From UHGV virus genome UHGV-0196030: a DNA stretch of 11,550 nt. One strand, given 5' to 3'. Shown piece by piece: positions 2,841 through 11,550 of this stretch. The position numbers and the translations under genes are program-made. The notes beneath the pieces were generated by a model. The model was not told the DNA's origin, ran no database searches, and worked only from the letters and a program-made list of their open reading frames with translations. How positions within the stretch are numbered: the first letter of the stretch is position 1; each line of letters opens with the position of its first letter. Source of the DNA: a virus.

Positions 2841-2964
2841 AGGTGGGTCAAAAGTTGCCGTTAAGGTGGGTCAAAAGTTGCCGAGTAAGAATTCTACTAT
2901 TAAGAATTCTAGGCGACGGGAGTTTTTTAGCCTCCCGGTCGGTCATAGAGAGTCGCCTAGAGTT
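2841..2964. repeat. Iteron-like repeat cluster: two identical 20-bp direct repeats, two TAAGAATTCT repeats and a nested palindrome
   Basis: AGGTGGGTCAAAAGTTGCCG at 2841..2860 and 2864..2883, identical, 23 bp centre to centre. TAAGAATTCT at 2886..2895 and 2901..2910. Inverted repeat CTAGGCGAC (2909..2917) / GTCGCCTAG (2952..2960) enclosing hairpin CGGGAG-n9-CTCCCG. Confidence 0.6.
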
Positions 2965-3793: not shown

Positions 3794-4414
3794 ATGCGCA
3801 TATCAAAGCAGCAACGCCAAATCCTCGACTATCTGGCAGAAAACGAATCAATCACAGCACGCCAGGCGGCAGATCTCGTTTATGGCGGCAACGTTACCCG
3901 CGTACAGGTCGATGCAGCCCGCCGTTCACTGATGGCGCTGGTCAGCAATGGGCTAATCATGAAACAAGGCCGCGCTTTCGTAGCTGAAAGACATATCAAT
4001 CACGCTTATAGCCAGGACGTTGAAGAGTTGCGCCGTCAGATCCTTTGGGTATTCAGCAAAGAGGGGCAGGACTATCTCATTTCTGAGCGTCCAAATTACG
4101 CCGCCAAAGAGTTAACAGTAAGCGGATTGTCGTGCGCACTGGATTATCTTGTCGGTGAAGGTTGCGTTACTTACAAGCAGCTATGGCACGCCCTGAACAC
4201 GCTTGTAGAAGATGGTTTACTCATTGCCACGCGTGAGAATATCGAATACTGGATAATGCCGCGTTCAGGTCGCCGCAATCATGCGCGGTATATTTCAGGC
4301 AACAAATACAGAACGCCTGACTTTAATCCGACACAGGAAGATCGGGACCGTGCCGAAATGATGTGCAGGGAACGGGAGAAAAGATTCATGGACAAGTTGT
4401 TTTCGATGCGGTGA
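3794..4414 (+). CDS. Hypothetical protein, 206 aa, with an N-terminal winged-helix/HTH-like region (putative DNA-binding protein)
   Basis: Long ORF with protein-like composition. N-terminal ISKQQRQILDYLAENESITARQAADLVYGG...RSLMALVSNGLIMKQGR resembles MarR/winged-helix recognition helices. Weak SD. A strong terminator follows directly. Confidence 0.5.
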   Translation: MRISKQQRQILDYLAENESITARQAADLVYGGNVTRVQVDAARRSLMALVSNGLIMKQGRAFVAERHINHAYSQDVEELRRQILWVFSKEGQDYLISERPNYAAKELTVSGLSCALDYLVGEGCVTYKQLWHALNTLVEDGLLIATRENIEYWIMPRSGRRNHARYISGNKYRTPDFNPTQEDRDRAEMMCREREKRFMDKLFSMR

Positions 4415-4420
4415 ACACAA

Positions 4421-4443: not shown

Positions 4444-4583
4444 TTGCCTTATTCCACGTCAGACGAATCAATCTAATCACACCTGAGCAAATGCATTGCC
4501 AAAAATTTAGGCTGTCAGAATGCGTTTTAGCGCGTTTTAAGGGCATCGAATTTTAATTAATTTTGATGCGGTGATTTGCGGGC

Positions 4584-4671
4584 AAAAAAAATCCAGCCGG
4601 AGAGGGCTGGAAATAGAGACATATCGTTGTAGTTATTAACAGATCACATTTTGAGGCTGAGTATTTACCTC
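4584..4671 (-). ncRNA. Putative small antisense RNA (~88 nt) with its own promoter and intrinsic terminator; contains a 14-nt complement of the HNH gene ribosome-binding region
   Basis: Minus-strand promoter-like hexamers: -35 TTGCAC (complement of 4701..4706), 17-bp spacer, -10 GATAAT (complement of 4678..4683). Minus-strand terminator: stem 4592..4598 / 4605..4611 followed by U8 (complement of A8 at 4584..4591). No ORF longer than about 19 codons inside. Contains the complement of 4643..4656, which is identical to 5090..5103 at the HNH Shine-Dalgarno. Confidence 0.3.
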
Positions 4672-4755
4672 ACTAATATTATCGCGCCGTTATGGTGATT
4701 GTGCAAATCATCTCTTCCAATCACAAAAACGTCATATTCGACAATGAAGCCGTGT

Positions 4756-4784
4756 TTGAACACGTAGGACAATGGGAATAAAAT
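4756..4784 (+). promoter_or_regulatory. Candidate sigma70 promoter for the alpA-HNH operon
   Basis: -35 TTGAAC (4756..4761), 17-bp spacer, -10 TAAAAT (4779..4784). Predicted start near 4791, about 90 nt upstream of alpA. Confidence 0.4.
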
Positions 4785-4823
4785 AATTACATAGGGTTTT
4801 TCTCTTGGCCTATTTTTTCATTC

Positions 4824-4868
4824 AGCGGCGGTTGTTTTTCTCCATATTTCCAGCCGCCGCTCCTTTTC
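4824..4868 (+). promoter_or_regulatory. Leader hairpin with a short U-tract upstream of alpA (possible attenuator)
   Basis: Stem AGCGGCGG (4824..4831) / CCGCCGCT (4854..4861), 22-nt loop, followed by CCTTTTCG, then the alpA SD GAGG at 4872..4875. Confidence 0.3.
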
Positions 4869-4883
4869 GAAGAGGTGATGAAA

Positions 4884-5075
4884 ATGAACGACTTTCCCGA
4901 ATTGATAAGCTGCGAACAAGTCGCTCGACTTTTTTGTGTAAGCAAGCGCACGATTCTCAGGTGGGTAGATAAAATCCCCGGCTTTCCAATCCCTGTAAGT
5001 CCTGAAGGAACCCCGCTCCGCTTTATTCGCAGCGAAATTCTCGAGTATTTCTACAGAGGGCACAACCATAAATAA
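4884..5075 (+). CDS. alpA: AlpA-family phage transcriptional regulator / excisionase-like HTH protein (about 63 aa)
   Basis: Small protein with the AlpA-like pattern ...LISCEQVARLFCVSKRTILRWVDKIPGFPIPVSPEGTPLRFIRSEILEYF. SD GAGG at 4872..4875, 8 nt before the ATG at 4884; in-frame GTG 4875 and ATG 4878 sit too close to the SD. Symbol is family-level. Confidence 0.7.
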   Translation: MNDFPELISCEQVARLFCVSKRTILRWVDKIPGFPIPVSPEGTPLRFIRSEILEYFYRGHNHK

Positions 5076-5111
5076 CGAAATAAAATCCCATCACATTTTG
5101 AGGTAAACATC

Positions 5112-5507
5112 ATGACCAATATCGAAAGATTAGAACGCTGTGCCGATATTATGCGGCGCAGATGGATTTATGACCCTGAAGCGGGTTTATTGTTTAGCCG
5201 TGAAACAAAAGACGTTATCAAAGGCAGCATGACCAATAAAGGGCATTTGGTTGTAACGGTACATGAAGGTAAATTCAAAGTGACACTCACCTATCAGAAA
5301 GCCTGCTATGTATACACATACGGCGCTTATGACGAGACATTATATGAAGTGCACCACGTTAATTTGAACAAACAGGATAACCGCATCAAGAATATTCGCC
5401 TGATGCCGAAAGAAAAGCACCGCCGGATACATAAAAACGTCCGCAAACTTATTCGGCTGGGCCACACACAATGGCTTCAACCGCAATTAATTGAACAATC
5501 ACTATAA
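5112..5507 (+). CDS. HNH endonuclease (HNH_3-type), 131 aa
   Basis: Motif YEVHHVNLNKQDNRIKNIRLMPKEKHRRIH matches the H-H-x-N...N-R...N-(I/L)-R signature of phage HNH_3 nucleases. SD GAGG at 5100..5103, 8 nt before the ATG. Confidence 0.6.
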   Translation: MTNIERLERCADIMRRRWIYDPEAGLLFSRETKDVIKGSMTNKGHLVVTVHEGKFKVTLTYQKACYVYTYGAYDETLYEVHHVNLNKQDNRIKNIRLMPKEKHRRIHKNVRKLIRLGHTQWLQPQLIEQSL

Positions 5508-6353: not shown

Positions 6354-6404
6354 TCGGATAAAAGAAAGCCGGGAATTACCCCGGCTGACTTAACAATGTG
6401 ACCA

Positions 6405-6779
6405 ATGAACAAATCGGACAAGACAAACAGGATAAGCAGTCTCGAAACAATGTTCGGGAACTATATTAGCACAAGTCCGGAGAAAATCATCATGTTGGCA
6501 CTACGCATCATGCAGGGCATCGCTAAGACCCTCGCAGAACATGTCTTAGACCTGAAACATTCGCCACTGAGCAAACAGGCCATGAAGCGCCAAACGCTTC
6601 GTCTGTGGGCTGAATATTCGCTTGGAACTATCAATAAGCTCATCAATATGAAGTCGAAAGATAATGGCAGTGTCCATGAGTGTAACAGCGAAGAAAAGGA
6701 ATTTGTGAAACGCCTGAAGTTAATCCGCGCCGATATTCACTCACAACTGGCCTCTTGTGGTTGCGATATTGATGACTAA
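6405..6779 (+). CDS. Hypothetical protein (124 aa from ATG 6405; a better-supported start at ATG 6492 would give 95 aa)
   Basis: ATG 6405 has no SD. The in-frame ATG at 6492 is preceded by GGAGA (6479..6483) at 8-nt spacing. The C-terminal region is the same either way. Confidence 0.45.
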   Translation: MNKSDKTNRISSLETMFGNYISTSPEKIIMLALRIMQGIAKTLAEHVLDLKHSPLSKQAMKRQTLRLWAEYSLGTINKLINMKSKDNGSVHECNSEEKEFVKRLKLIRADIHSQLASCGCDIDD

Positions 6780-6878: not shown

Positions 6879-7283
6879 GTGGAGACTGAAGATAAAGAAA
6901 TCAATAACTTGCCTGTAAATGGCAACAGGTTAGCGAGAAAAAGGGCCAAATATACCATCGCGCTGGCGGAAGAAATTTGTTTGTTGGTAGCGGAAGGCCA
7001 TAGCCTACGTGAGATCGCGAAGATGCCAGACATGCCATCGTTACGCACTTTAATGCGGTGGCAATATGAACATCCAGATTTCAGAGAGCACATCGGTATT
7101 TTTAAGTGGATTCACGCCCAGGACGCAGCAGAGCAAGCTGTTGAAGCTATCAGAGATGTAGATCTGGAAGCGGAAGACGCGCCACTGAAATTAAAACAGG
7201 CTGAGGCATTAGCCCGCACTTTGTTAGGTCGTGCCAAATTGCTTGAGAGCAAAAACAATCCATTCAACGGGGGTGACAAATGA
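6879..7283 (+). CDS. Phage terminase small subunit (TerS)-like protein, 134 aa, GTG start
   Basis: N-terminal HTH region KYTIALAEEICLLVAEGHSLREIAKMPDMPSLRTLMRWQYEHPDFREHI matches the pattern I recall for TerS-family proteins (Y-T-x-E-L-A-x-x-I-C...G-x-S-L-R-x-I...M-P-S-x-x-T-x-x-R-W). G-rich SD at 6868..6872. Confidence 0.55.
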   Translation: METEDKEINNLPVNGNRLARKRAKYTIALAEEICLLVAEGHSLREIAKMPDMPSLRTLMRWQYEHPDFREHIGIFKWIHAQDAAEQAVEAIRDVDLEAEDAPLKLKQAEALARTLLGRAKLLESKNNPFNGGDK

Positions 7284-8120: not shown

Positions 8121-9966
8121 ATGAGTGGAAATCTTGGGACCATTTACTATGAGGTGGACGCCCGCACGGGTAAGCTACTGATGGCACAAGAAGAAGCGAA
8201 TCAGGCTTTTGATGCCATTGAGCGTGGCGCAAAACGTGCTGATAACGGCGTCAAAAAACTGAATACGCAGATGACCAAAACGTCTGCCGCAGTAAAATCA
8301 AATTTCTCATTTGCAATCAAAAACGCATCCTACCAGATAGCAGACCTTGCTACACAACTTCAGATGGGCGGTAATGCCATCCAGGTCTTTGCCGTTCAAG
8401 GGGCGCAGCTTGTCGCTGCATTTGGTACTGGCGGTGCGGTCATGGGTGCGGTCATGGCTATTGGCGGGGCAATTGCCAACAGCCTTACGGATAACATGGA
8501 TGACGCCACGGATAGAAAAATACATTGATGCGCTACTCCGCTACAGCAACGAGGTGCTAACAGCAGAAGAGCGTCAAACGGCGTTAAACGAGGCACTGAA
8601 TGCTGGGGCGTCTGCGGCAGCAATTGCCACTGGCGAAATGCTGATTAAACAGGAGCAGATCAAGCAAGAGAAGCTAAAAGGCAATGAGAACGCTGCGCTT
8701 GATATGGCGCTGGCTGAGGGCAAGTTAACGAAGGCGGATCACGATAGGCTTGTCCAGATGCGAGAAGAAACAAAGGAATTGGAGGAGAACAAACGCAAGG
8801 AAGAAGAGAACGCCAGGGAGAAAGAACGAGCAGCCAAACAGGCAGAAAGCGCGGCGAAACAGGCGGCGAAACAGGCGCAACGCGAACTTGAACAGCTTCA
8901 GAAACGCGGGCAAGGTGTAGCTGACAAGTACAACGTAGAGGGCGCAGCACAGCGTAAACTAAAAGAAGACCAGGAAGCGCTAAATGCAGCAATGGAAGCT
9001 GGCAAAATCAGCACAGAACAATATAACGCAGCGTGGGCCGGACTCCTGAGAACGGAGGCGCAACGCAAACAGCAAGCCGGATGGGATAATCTTGTCAGCC
9101 GGGAAGATAAGCTAAAAGGCCGTGTTGACCCAATCCAGCAGGTGATGAACGAATGGAATGTTCGCAAGCAAATGATGCTCGATTTAGGCGTCACTGAGGC
9201 AACCATGCGGCAAGCAGAGATCGACCACAAAGAACGAATTCTTAACCTTCAGTGGCAGCAATGGCAGGCGCAAAGCGATACTAACGCGCTTGTAGGTAAC
9301 ATGATTGATGGCCTCGCTTCCGGTGCTGGTAGCGCATTTACCGGACTGCTTAACGGATCTCAATCGTTCCAGGAATCACTTGCTAACATCGGAACGACCA
9401 TTATCAACCAGGTTGTTGGAAGCCTTGCGCAGATGGGGGCGGAATACGTTAAACAGCTTGTTATGGGTGAGGTTGCGCAGAAATCAGCCTCCGCATCAGC
9501 TACTGCAACGGCAGCGGCAACAGGCGCATCAATCGCATCATCAATGGCCCCAGCAGCAGCGGCGACAGCAACCGCGACAATGGGTACGGCCCCGATGGTG
9601 GCGATGTCTGCGATGTCGGCATTAATGACTGGCATTACAAGCCTATTTGGCGGACGTCGCTACAACGGCGGCGCGGTTAATGGCGGCAATATGTATCGAG
9701 TCGGTGAAAACAAAGTACCTGAACTATTCCAGACCAATAACGGACGGCAGTACATGATTCCGGGTGAGAATGGTCGCATCATTCCTGGTCGTGATATTGG
9801 TGGCGGTAACGTTAGCATAAACGCGCCTATAACCGTTTACCCACAAAACGGTTGGACCGAACAGGATAGCAAGGCATTGCAGCAGACGATTGAGAATACA
9901 GCGATGCGGTTGATGCAGAGAGAATCAACCAGGCCGGGCGGAATGCTCCAGGGTCGCCGCCGTTAA
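8121..9966 (+). pseudogene. Lambda gpH-like tail tape-measure gene, split by a frameshift near 8516..8528 into 8121..8528 and a second frame running to 9966
   Basis: N-terminal part (...YQIADLATQLQMGGNAIQVFAVQGAQLVAAFGTGGAVMGAVMAIGGAIANSL) resembles the lambda H region FTDVATQLAGGQSPWLILLQQGGQV. Downstream frame has coiled-coil KEEENAREKERAAKQAESAAKQAAKQAQRELEQLQKRG and a Gly/Ala/Thr-rich C-terminus ending GGMLQGRRR (lambda H ends GGLFSGGGR). The two frames are offset by +1, with an A5 run at 8516..8520 just before the frame-0 stop. No other tail genes are present. Confidence 0.6.
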
Positions 9967-10260: not shown

Positions 10261-10431
10261 TACCATCATTATTAAATCTATTAATAATCATCAAACCATA
10301 ATTAGCACAACTTATAATCGAGCAAAAATCACACAACCTTGATAAGTTGAGCTAATGGCTATATGTTTTTCTGATGAAATCCTAATGGCGAAAACTTGCG
10401 ACGATACCGAAAAAACCGCGAAAATTGAAGT

Positions 10432-10541
10432 GTTCTTTCTTTTTTTGTTTTTTATTTTTTTATTTTCTCTTTTTCTTCTCTTTCCGGTTCTCTTCTTTTT
10501 CTGGTTTTGGTTTTTTCCTTTTTTATTTTTATTCTTTCTTC
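10432..10541. repeat. Polypyrimidine (T/C-rich) low-complexity tract of about 110 bp; polypurine on the minus strand
   Basis: GTTCTTTCTTTTTTTGTTTTTTATTTTTTTATTTTCTCTTTTTCTTCTCTTTCCGGTTCTCTTCTTTTTCTGGTTTTGGTTTTTTCCTTTTTTATTTTTATTCTTTCTTC; strongly pyrimidine-biased, with only scattered purines. Confidence 0.7.
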
Positions 10542-10687: not shown

Positions 10688-10720
10688 TCAGGAAGGAAAT
10701 GCGAGTGATTTCACCGTCAC
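10688..10720. repeat. Right junction: the genuine eutA 3' end, partner of the imperfect repeat at 685..717 (attR-like)
   Basis: TCAGGAAGGAAATGCGAGTGATTTCACCGTCAC includes the eutA stop codon (TCA on +, TGA on minus). See the left-junction repeat. Confidence 0.45.
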
Positions 10721-11550
10721 CGGCACAACCGATCCGCCAAAAAGAGGCGTACCAATGTCGATATAGTCCCCCGCGCGGACAATCACTTCGTCAATGACTG
10801 CCAACGGGAGTTGTTGTAGCTGTGGGCGCAACAACATGCCCAGAGCTTTACCAAAGTCCTGCCCGGCCACCACCAGCAGGGGATGCGGATTCGGAAAACG
10901 CGCGACGAAATCGACCAGCGCGTTGATGACCGTCAGTACCGCGGCGTAACGCACAGGCAGCGAGGCGGGAAGCGCCAGCACGTACGCGTCAGTTTTGGGA
11001 TCAAGATCCAGCTGAAGCAGCGCCTGTTGCCAGGCACTCACCAGATCCGTTTCATCAATCGGGATCGCCACCGGCAAATTGCGCAGCGGCAGTTGTACGC
11101 CCTCCAGCCAGATTGTGCTGCCAGAGAGCGAAAGGGTATGTGCACCCGCGCCAATCACCGTGGCGCGTACGGTTTGCGCCGGAAACTGCACATTCATCTC
11201 ACGCAGGCGCGGATGGTCATGCAGCGCCGTTGCCAGAAGTGGGCCAATATCGGCAAAACAGAACGGGTCGGCGGGCTGGTGGCGATAACATTCGCCCACG
11301 CCTCCAGAAAGCGTAATGATTTCGGGCGTAACACCTGCGGGCAGCAAACCGGTTTGCATCAATGCCTGCGCGAGCGGCGAAAGCGTTCCGTCAATCACTT
11401 CGACAATCAGCGCCGCCATCCGCCGGGTAACCTGCACCAGCTGCGCGCCGGTCAGCGAACGGGCGTCAGTGCCTGCACCGAAGCACTCATCCACAATCAT
11501 CTGCCCCGGTTTATGAGCGTAAACCACGCGCCCGTGGCTGTCGGTTTCCA
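10688..11550 (-). CDS. eutA: Ethanolamine utilisation protein EutA (ethanolamine ammonia-lyase reactivase), C-terminal ~287 codons; gene continues past the window end
   Basis: Minus-strand frame open from the window end to the stop at 10688..10690, ending ...GTPLFGGSVVPVTVKSLAFPS. Lies directly upstream of eutB in operon orientation, as in the eut operon order eutA then eutB. Confidence 0.85.
   Translation of the reverse strand, partial: ETDSHGRVVYAHKPGQMIVDECFGAGTDARSLTGAQLVQVTRRMAALIVEVIDGTLSPLAQALMQTGLLPAGVTPEIITLSGGVGECYRHQPADPFCFADIGPLLATALHDHPRLREMNVQFPAQTVRATVIGAGAHTLSLSGSTIWLEGVQLPLRNLPVAIPIDETDLVSAWQQALLQLDLDPKTDAYVLALPASLPVRYAAVLTVINALVDFVARFPNPHPLLVVAGQDFGKALGMLLRPQLQQLPLAVIDEVIVRAGDYIDIGTPLFGGSVVPVTVKSLAFPS

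Follow-up and report, generated by a model that had tools for sequence, protein, structure and literature searches.

A very likely small RNA gene in an Escherichia coli chromosomal island, with an HNH endonuclease mRNA as a plausible but facultative target

The 11,550-nucleotide (nt) virus genome UHGV-0196030, the whole of which is referred to here as the window, is a chromosomal island of Escherichia coli that lies between eutB and eutA. Here we describe a candidate small RNA (sRNA) gene on the minus strand of this island, together with a possible target, the leader of an HNH endonuclease gene in the divergent operon that begins with an alpA-like gene. The candidate gene has a -35 box, TTGCAC (4701..4706, minus strand), that could be read from the sequence, and a -10 box, GATAAT (4678..4683, minus strand), that follows after 17 nt and was found by a promoter scan. 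The scan returned this same -10 box with shifted readings of the -35 box, and with 9/12 matches the promoter is a moderate one. Placing the start 7 nt after the -10 box and the end at a run of eight U residues gives a predicted transcript of ~88 nt (4584..4671, minus strand). This transcript would contain a 5′ stem-loop (4653..4671) that is weak in the window variant and uses the CCUC of the seed, a conserved core, CAAAAUGUGAUCUGUUAAUAACUACAACG (4625..4653), that is unpaired in the centroid fold, and an intrinsic terminator (4584..4611) consisting of the stem UCCAGCC/GGCUGGA, a loop of 6 nt and U8. In the DNA the terminator stem occupies 4611..4592, with seven pairs of which five are G-C, and T8 occupies 4591..4584. 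Part of the seed, 5′-CCUCAAAAUGUGAU-3′ (4643..4656), was recognized by repeat search and duplex prediction as complementary to the HNH leader, and corresponds to the first plus-strand copy of a repeated 14-mer. Note that the original prediction, which was made from the letters of the window, had described both the hexamers TTGCAC-17-GATAAT in the complement of 4706..4678 and the minus-strand terminator, and that both are present where it placed them. As a whole, the RNA is predicted to fold into a 5′ hairpin, an open middle and the terminator (-19.4 kcal/mol, z = -2.67). A candidate promoter for the alpA operon (TTGAAC, 17 nt, TAAAAT; 4756..4784, plus strand) and the sRNA promoter are arranged back to back.

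No conserved open reading frame (ORF) was found in 4584-4671 on either strand. Two potential coding sequences were rejected: a minus-strand ORF of 21 codons, which reads through the terminator and whose start is absent in the type-B variants, and a plus-strand "hypothetical protein" annotated across the module in one related island (L012), the frame of which is not conserved. A cmscan search against Rfam, with the whole window on both strands and E values up to 1, gave nothing relevant; the sole match was an unrelated, weak one to NsiR1 at 2208-2262.

We compared the region with other genomes, starting from a distant BLAST search of 4540-5115 against 5426 complete E. coli genomes. Positions 4576-4655 are conserved in 185-186 of these genomes (~3%), always as a single chromosomal copy, and the rest of the 4540-5115 region is kept in just 24. 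Strain ATCC 8739 (L007) is among the carriers and has both the sRNA module (NC_010468.1, 1,354,977-1,355,081, with the sRNA on the plus strand of that record) and the HNH gene. In the best 60 records there is no annotated feature under the module. Further loci were collected from islands and metagenome contigs, and the 31 loci with the module, plus the window, amount to 19 distinct versions. All 19 share one layout on the minus strand: a -35 box, 17 nt, a -10 block, a hairpin, the core, a U-rich stretch and the terminator. The -35 position reads TTGCAC, TTGCGC or TTGTAT in the 14 aligned loci, and the -10 block, GATAATATT(A/G), which includes GATAAT, is present in 19/19 variants. In each variant the 5′ hairpin begins a few bases past the predicted start. 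The core, CAAAAUGUGAUCU(GUUA/AUUA/none)AUAACUACAACG, is nearly invariant, its variation being limited to three minor seed variants and the 4-nt indel, and every variant folds with the core unpaired. Between the core and the terminator there is a short, variable U-rich stretch, and the terminator itself is a G+C-rich hairpin followed by 6-10 U residues. At the matching site for the alpA promoter, every variant has a TAAAAT or TATAAT box. Because the lengths of the A and U runs vary, and because the core contains a 4-nt indel, no reading frame is kept on either strand.

Both helices carry compensatory changes. The 5′ hairpin exists with seven different stems (UGAGG/CCUCA, GAGGAU/AUCCUC, CGAGGGU/GCCCUCG, AAGGAU/AUCCUU, AAGGGC/GCCCUU, AGGUU/AACCU and the weaker UGAG/CUCA of the window), all of which fold at the same position. 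Changes on both sides affect 4/7 pairs of this stem in a MAFFT alignment (A2) and 7/7 in an alignment fitted with a covariance model (A3). For both helices together, the MAFFT alignment with a hand-written structure has 5/13 pairs changed on both sides and 89% of cells paired, as opposed to 33-51% in a control in which the partners were shifted by 1-3 columns; the model-fitted alignment, which leans to the structure by construction, has nine pairs changed on both sides and 93% paired. Pairing in the terminator survives changes from C-G to A-U, and it includes G-U pairs that are possible on the minus strand only. Since on the other strand these G-U pairs would become C-A mismatches, and since the U-run is likewise confined to the minus strand, the conserved structure points to a minus-strand RNA and not to a DNA palindrome.

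The covariance model (R1) scored 4584-4673 at 104 bits and found exactly one copy, at 92-107 bits, in each full-length module-bearing locus. In strain AW1.7 (L015, 1501-1600), where the copy is truncated by IS5, the score is 73 bits; here the element sits within the sRNA seed (…GATCACATT|GGCTTTG…) and little of the island remains. The model matched nothing in the K-12 element CPZ-55 (which was considered as a carrier and rejected, being an element without the module), an island located at rssA, a variant with a deletion or a lambdoid prophage. When 100,044 species-representative genomes and IMG/VR were searched for the core pattern (CGTTGTAGTTAT, 0-4 nt, AGATCAC), only chance matches inside coding regions were obtained. 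The sRNA family thus appears, on the sequences searched, to be confined to E. coli, as does the HNH protein family. A full-text literature search for the core sequence found no relevant paper. Taken together, the comparison strongly supports the minus-strand sRNA gene of about 88 nt that had been proposed from the window, since the promoter, hairpins, core and terminator are kept in 19 variants, and we consider it highly probable that 4671..4584 (minus strand) is a transcribed and previously unannotated sRNA gene.

The window contains exactly two copies of the 14-mer ATCACATTTTGAGG, at 4643-4656 and 5090-5103, both on the plus strand and in agreement with the original prediction; no third copy with up to two mismatches was found in the window. 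The second copy (5090..5103, plus strand), identified as a candidate target box by repeat search, ends with the Shine-Dalgarno sequence GAGG (5100-5103), 8 nt before the ATG of the HNH gene at 5112, again as predicted. The sRNA and the HNH mRNA are predicted to form a duplex of 14 Watson-Crick pairs and one G-U pair (-22.6 kcal/mol) that starts 23 nt upstream of the ATG and extends over the Shine-Dalgarno sequence. The complementarity to the HNH ribosome-binding region that had been noticed earlier is therefore real in the window, and the start region it involves is unstructured (z = +0.40). Moreover, outside the sRNA gene itself no other site in the window offers as good a contiguous helix, the site ranks first among 15 translation start regions, and only 0.2% of random 45-nt windows pair as well. 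In 2000 shuffles of the core (4612-4658) tested against the 15 plus-strand start regions, none gave an exact match of 14 and the maximum, 13, was reached twice, in a test that was chosen after the result was seen. It had been cautioned that a repeat of this kind can arise by chance, and rightly so: 25% of windows simulated with a Markov-1 model contain at least one direct 14-mer repeat. Thus, the repeated 14-mer alone means little; its context, on the other hand, is not chance-like.

The explanation that we favor overall, to which we would assign a probability of roughly 0.5, is that a real sRNA gene resides in the island control region and that HNH is, in the window, a facultative target brought by a cassette. 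According to this explanation the sRNA would have a sigma-70 promoter of its own, arranged back to back with that of the alpA operon. Its build (a 5′ stem-loop, ~40 nt of open conserved sequence, a Rho-independent terminator and U8) would be that of a base-pairing RNA of the Hfq type; the traits of such RNAs that are seen here are an own promoter, a Rho-independent terminator with a U tail and a conserved unstructured seed, and we infer from them that the RNA would depend on Hfq. The 5′ part of the open region, CCUCAAAAUGUGAU, would pair with the HNH mRNA from -22 to -9, over the Shine-Dalgarno sequence, and the pairing would block binding of the 30S subunit, such that no nuclease would be made from leaky operon transcripts. 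HNH would be a facultative target that arrived with a mobile cassette, and the sRNA a fixture of the island control region. The resemblance of the seed to the cassette leader is real, and repression is physically likely in this lineage whenever both RNAs are present; whether the sRNA measurably represses HNH translation in this strain we would put at even odds.

A number of observations weigh against this explanation. The sRNA promoter matches at just 9/12 positions, and in the fold of the window variant the CCUC of the seed is occupied by the weak 5′ hairpin. The exact 14/14 match is found only in the window lineage. In most relatives that bear HNH the leader is one T shorter, which leaves 9-10 bp, a 1-nt bulge and 4-5 bp; the duplex energies of these relatives are reached by 1.5-7% of random 45-nt windows, and that of L006 by 41%, which is no better than background. 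Since there are about 15 start regions per island, a figure of 1.5-7% means that the pairing in relatives is not distinguishable from chance. In six gut-metagenome loci (L033-L038) the seed of the sRNA has changed from CA to TG (CCUCAAAACAUGAU) with the HNH leader unchanged, leaving ~7 bp. Linkage between the two genes is also loose. Six loci (L002, L009, L010 and L012-L014) have another gene after alpA and no HNH, and keep an sRNA with an identical core. Conversely, an island next to rssA (L024) has an HNH cassette that is 81% identical, with the leader ATCACATTTTTAGGTAAACATC, and no sRNA module, and in L029, represented by one assembly, a deletion of ~95 nt from the terminator stem to the -35 box removes the sRNA, the HNH protein being identical (P0022).

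Other features of the relatives concern the cassette itself. In seven of the nine further HNH-bearing variants with a locatable start (L003, L004, L007, L011, L026, L027 and L039) the best pairing is at the same place, and all HNH cassettes keep ATCACATTT(T)GAGG before the gene. Homology between HNH cassettes begins exactly at ATCAC (5090 in the window), whatever the alpA type upstream, and because it begins exactly at the motif, the conservation of the leader is explicable by descent alone. The HNH gene thus behaves as a mobile cassette that landed downstream of the island control region. HNH-positive genomes number 58. (The L024 cassette is at 3990-4420 of an island that adjoins rssA/rssB. 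Twelve genomes were listed with a cassette of the L024 kind, and none of these is among the ~110 sRNA-positive genomes listed.) Accordingly, the HNH target that had been proposed holds as regards complementarity in the window, but the pairing is bulged in most relatives, the seed change is uncompensated and the sRNA persists without HNH. The check that had been suggested, for conservation of both copies of the 14-mer in related islands, gives a similar result: the core is kept, but exact identity of the copies is limited to the window lineage. Moreover, HNH genes that keep their Shine-Dalgarno sequence without the upstream copy, a finding that had been named beforehand as contrary to the proposal, exist in part, namely in L024 and L029.

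We also searched for other targets, using scans for contiguous helices and short-window scans (RNAduplex on long windows gave loop-filled, uninformative structures). The next-best helices in the window are 10-11 nt and are not conserved. No complementarity to the sRNA was found in the alpA leader or start region. In the islands that lack HNH, no substitute target was found in the alpA leader, at the starts of alpA and the second gene, or at the annotated starts of a complete 17.5-kb island. A BLAST search of the sRNA against 50,697 phage records, with E values up to 10, gave no complementarity of at least ~18 nt, short seeds falling below BLAST thresholds. Overall, no target better than the HNH leader was found in the islands, the lambdoid prophage or, at 18 nt or more, the phage collection. 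Individual candidates were rejected as follows: relatives do not preserve the 11-nt helix that precedes the 3794 gene; with the conserved loop of a hairpin in the alpA leader the sRNA could form just 6-7 bp, and these are, by inspection, not conserved; with a second candidate sRNA (see below) it could form 9 bp (AAUGUGAUC/GGUCACAUU), no more than expected by chance, and the diverged homologue lacks them; and at the start of the 5811 gene (ACGCAUUUGAGGU), considered as a second target, coding constraint can explain the match, which is weak in islands of the other type. Nevertheless, the rest of the core (AUCU...AUAACUACAACG) must serve another target.

We considered whether the sRNA might be real and the match to the HNH leader be without selected function, slippage in T and A runs having perfected it in one lineage; the sRNA would then act on an mRNA of a helper phage or of the host, or on another island transcript. 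This seems to us possible, if rather doubtful. It would account for a core that is conserved with or without HNH, for a seed variant that is not compensated in the leader, for HNH genes found without the sRNA and for family-wide pairing that is near background, and it sits well with the start of cassette homology exactly at the motif, where descent suffices and the cassette would have brought its own leader. It is harder to reconcile with a 15-bp duplex on an open Shine-Dalgarno sequence, which should repress translation whenever the two RNAs occur together, with a match that is unusual for the window lineage in the restricted shuffle test, and with the failure of the target searches in the islands, the lambdoid prophage and the phage collection (at least 18 nt) to produce a better site. 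The loose linkage tells against a type I toxin-antitoxin pair resembling RalR/RalA, with HNH as a DNA-cutting toxin and the sRNA as its trans-encoded antitoxin. The logic would be the same (a nuclease mRNA and an adjacent, opposite sRNA that share a repeat), and complementarity to the HNH mRNA (14 nt plus one G-U) is present, but such a pair should not come apart as it does in the loci with sRNA and no HNH (L002, L009, L010, L012-L014) and in those with HNH and no sRNA (L024, L029). HNH moreover lies within a multi-gene operon that adjoins packaging-type genes, and we regard this explanation as very improbable.

A different kind of explanation does without an RNA gene, the conserved sequences being DNA signals, that is, operator-like palindromes for island repressors near the alpA promoter, plus a leftover hairpin of the upstream gene. 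The 5′ hairpins are indeed palindromes of 15-17 bp right after the -10 box and are operator-sized, and in some variants the upstream plus-strand gene ends at the hairpin, a copy of its 3′ end (TTTYGATGCGGTGA) being present at 4561. The type of hairpin, however, tracks neither the alpA type nor the upstream gene, the G-U pairs suit a minus-strand RNA only, and 19/19 variants keep a minus-only U8 as well as a conserved, correctly spaced promoter, all of which makes the explanation by DNA signals improbable. Finally, the sRNA could conceivably be the missing quiescence (immunity) factor of this family of Gram-negative satellite-like islands, one that would silence the alpA operon and the cassette genes post-transcriptionally until a helper phage removes or outcompetes it; this is a speculative proposal that we think unlikely, and the search of the alpA leader and start region found no complementarity in its support. 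On our reading, pairing with HNH is not the reason for the existence of the sRNA, and HNH is at most one optional target.

Several known systems bear comparison. The c4 RNA of phages P1 and P7 and the CI RNA of P4 are encoded by mobile elements and silence lytic or transfer functions by pairing with a short box, one that includes a ribosome-binding site (that of icd in P1), in a neighbouring operon. The original prediction saw a resemblance to these RNAs, and the resemblance is one of analogy, a small RNA of a mobile element being proposed here, too, to occlude a ribosome-binding site. It does not extend further: the P1 and P4 RNAs form an Rfam family (C4, RF01695) and there is no Rfam match here with E values up to 1; they are processed from the leader of an operon on the same strand, whereas the candidate here is encoded opposite to the operon, with conserved -35 and -10 boxes of its own; and they have two target boxes, in contrast to one here, which moreover belongs to a cassette gene that many relatives lack. 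The IstR-1/tisB, OrzO/zorO and AgrB/dinQ pairs consist of an antitoxin sRNA that is divergent from its target operon and has limited complementarity to the 5′ region of the target mRNA. The divergent arrangement and the limited complementarity in a 5′ region are common to the present case, but here the divergent first gene encodes an alpA-like regulator and not a small hydrophobic toxin, and the target box is ~450 nt away, before the second gene. DicF and IpeX, Hfq-type sRNAs of E. coli prophages, likewise have their own promoter, an open seed and an intrinsic terminator with a U tail, and are encoded on acquired DNA; they differ in that there is no relation in sequence or in Rfam, and in that the sRNA here is in the island regulatory region, its candidate target being part of the same island.

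In layout, RalA/RalR of the rac prophage is the nearest precedent: an sRNA that is adjacent, oppositely oriented and dependent on Hfq has a 16-nt repeat in common with a DNase mRNA (PMC4041452). The exact repeat is 14 nt here, and RalA pairs inside the coding region whereas the sRNA described here is predicted to pair over the Shine-Dalgarno sequence. There is no sequence similarity between the two systems, and among the relatives studied here the sRNA and the nuclease are genetically unlinked. A precedent for a regulatory sRNA encoded by a satellite is SviR of the Vibrio cholerae PLE satellite, which is reported to act on satellite and phage transcripts (bioRxiv 10.1101/2022.04.08.487710); that element is unrelated and has another host, and no phage target was found here.

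The island that carries the module is 99.9% identical over its full length to sequence of strain MB19, and the eutB/eutA insertion point is the site of the cryptic prophage CPZ-55 in K-12. On the plus strand it encodes a tyrosine integrase (958-2067), the alpA-like helix-turn-helix (HTH) gene that is first in the divergent operon (4884-5075; HTH_17 at 24.6 bits, under the 27-bit cut-off), the HNH endonuclease of 131 aa (5112-5507; PF13392 HNH_3, E 3.8e-08), a gene resembling the small terminase of Sf6 (6879-7283) and a tape-measure-like gene (8121-9966; TMP_2 and PHROG tape-measure families, up to E 7e-67), as well as several further genes with unknown products. HNH sits inside a multi-gene operon adjoining the packaging-type genes. 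On the minus strand lies eutA (10688-11527). The product of the alpA-like gene has PHROG matches to excisionase and transcriptional regulator families, and its homologues are annotated as helix-turn-helix or AlpA family proteins. The islands with the module form an integrative family of E. coli, mostly at eutB/eutA, and by their integrase, alpA-like regulator and small-terminase-like gene they look like phage satellites. Compared with phage-inducible chromosomal islands (PICIs), the window has the integrase and the Sf6-type small-terminase-like gene, and an alpA-like HTH that is below the cut-off; no primase or replication-initiator domain was found in the window proteins, apart from a weak DnaD-like hint, and the tape-measure-like gene is unexpected for a PICI. 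In PICIs of Gram-positive bacteria a divergent gene encodes the repressor Stl or Rpr, and the sRNA here, divergent from alpA, is at the place of that gene. In Gram-negative PICIs the repressor is not known, and alpA is an activator that is switched on by the helper phage (PMC6092414).

Some further features of the island were noted. The island of ~10 kb that holds the tape-measure-like gene has no other tail or capsid genes. Two ORFs are listed for this gene, 8121-8528 and 8347-9966, and their overlap suggests a frameshift or truncation. At 10431-10530, just within the eutA-side end, a long tract that is rich in T and of low complexity may be an att or junction region. At 2841-2886 (plus strand) there are tandem copies of AGGTGGGTCAAAAGTTGCCG with a 23-nt period; the unit GGTGGGTCAAAAGTTGCCGTTAA of these repeats occurs four times after yffL in CPZ-55 of K-12, and is also found in L002. 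The repeats are iteron-like and may be an origin or a regulator-binding array.

The leader of the alpA-like gene (4815-4884, plus strand) has structure of its own. It contains a hairpin at 4824-4861, with 11 G+C-rich bp and a 16-nt loop, followed by CCUUUUC, and in the predicted fold (-29.8 kcal/mol, z = -2.98) neighbouring helices sequester the Shine-Dalgarno sequence and the start codon. The hairpin and the T-run are present in every island variant, with different stems that keep their pairing (GCGGTGAGG/CCTCACCGC and GCCCCCCAG/CTGCGGGGGGGC), and leader types 1 and 2 have the loop motif TTTYCYCCATATTT in common. As modelled, the hairpin looks like a leader terminator or attenuator. Note that AlpA of Pseudomonas aeruginosa is an antiterminator (PMC7969949). 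An exact 11-nt inverted DNA repeat connects 4605-4615 with 4845-4855, such that UAUUUCCAGCC appears in both RNAs, in the 5′ arm of the sRNA terminator and in the loop and 3′ arm of the alpA leader hairpin. This was not seen in L012-type islands, and the repeat is probably due to chance.

A second candidate sRNA is located on the minus strand at ~6358-6456, in the intergenic region after the 5811-6353 gene, with a -10 box at 6468..6463 and a terminator at 6386..6367. An extended -10 sequence (TGcTAATAT) is followed by ~70 nt and then by a hairpin, AGCCGGGG/CCCGGCU, and UUCUUUU, and the RNA would lie antisense to the mRNA of the operon. Ten other loci share the region at 98-100% identity. In L027-L032 there is a diverged copy, which retains TGgTATAAT and has a hairpin with compensatory changes; the model of the first sRNA gives a weak match to this copy (17.6 bits, E 0.34). 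The best promoter-like match of the region (TTCAAA, 18 nt, TATAAT; 10/12) is at 5339-5368 on the minus strand, inside HNH and antisense to it, and a transcript from there would be antisense to HNH and alpA and extend as far as the sRNA terminator. On the other side of that terminator, TTTCGATGCGGTGA (4401-4414), which comprises the last codons and the stop of the 3794-4414 gene, recurs as TTTTGATGCGGTGA at 4561-4574. The recurring sequence is just beyond the sRNA terminator and within the palindrome CATCGAATTTTAATTAATTTTGATG (4544-4573), and in other variants the upstream plus-strand gene ends exactly there. Given this end point, the block to the left of the terminator looks like a remnant of the 3′ end of that gene.

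These findings suggest that the island encodes a base-pairing sRNA that is very likely real and for which HNH is a plausible, facultative target. If it is transcribed, it represents an undescribed sRNA family that ~3% of complete E. coli genomes carry, among them that of the much-used strain ATCC 8739, and that is invisible to current annotation, there being no Rfam family and no feature in the best 60 records. The natural variants, with perfect, bulged and mismatched pairs and a clean deletion, provide a ready mutant set for the rules of seed-target recognition. The sRNA is located at the control point of a type of island whose silencing mechanism is not understood. For the nuclease, repression by the sRNA, if true, would exemplify a mobile cassette gene that came under the post-transcriptional control of the element in which it landed.

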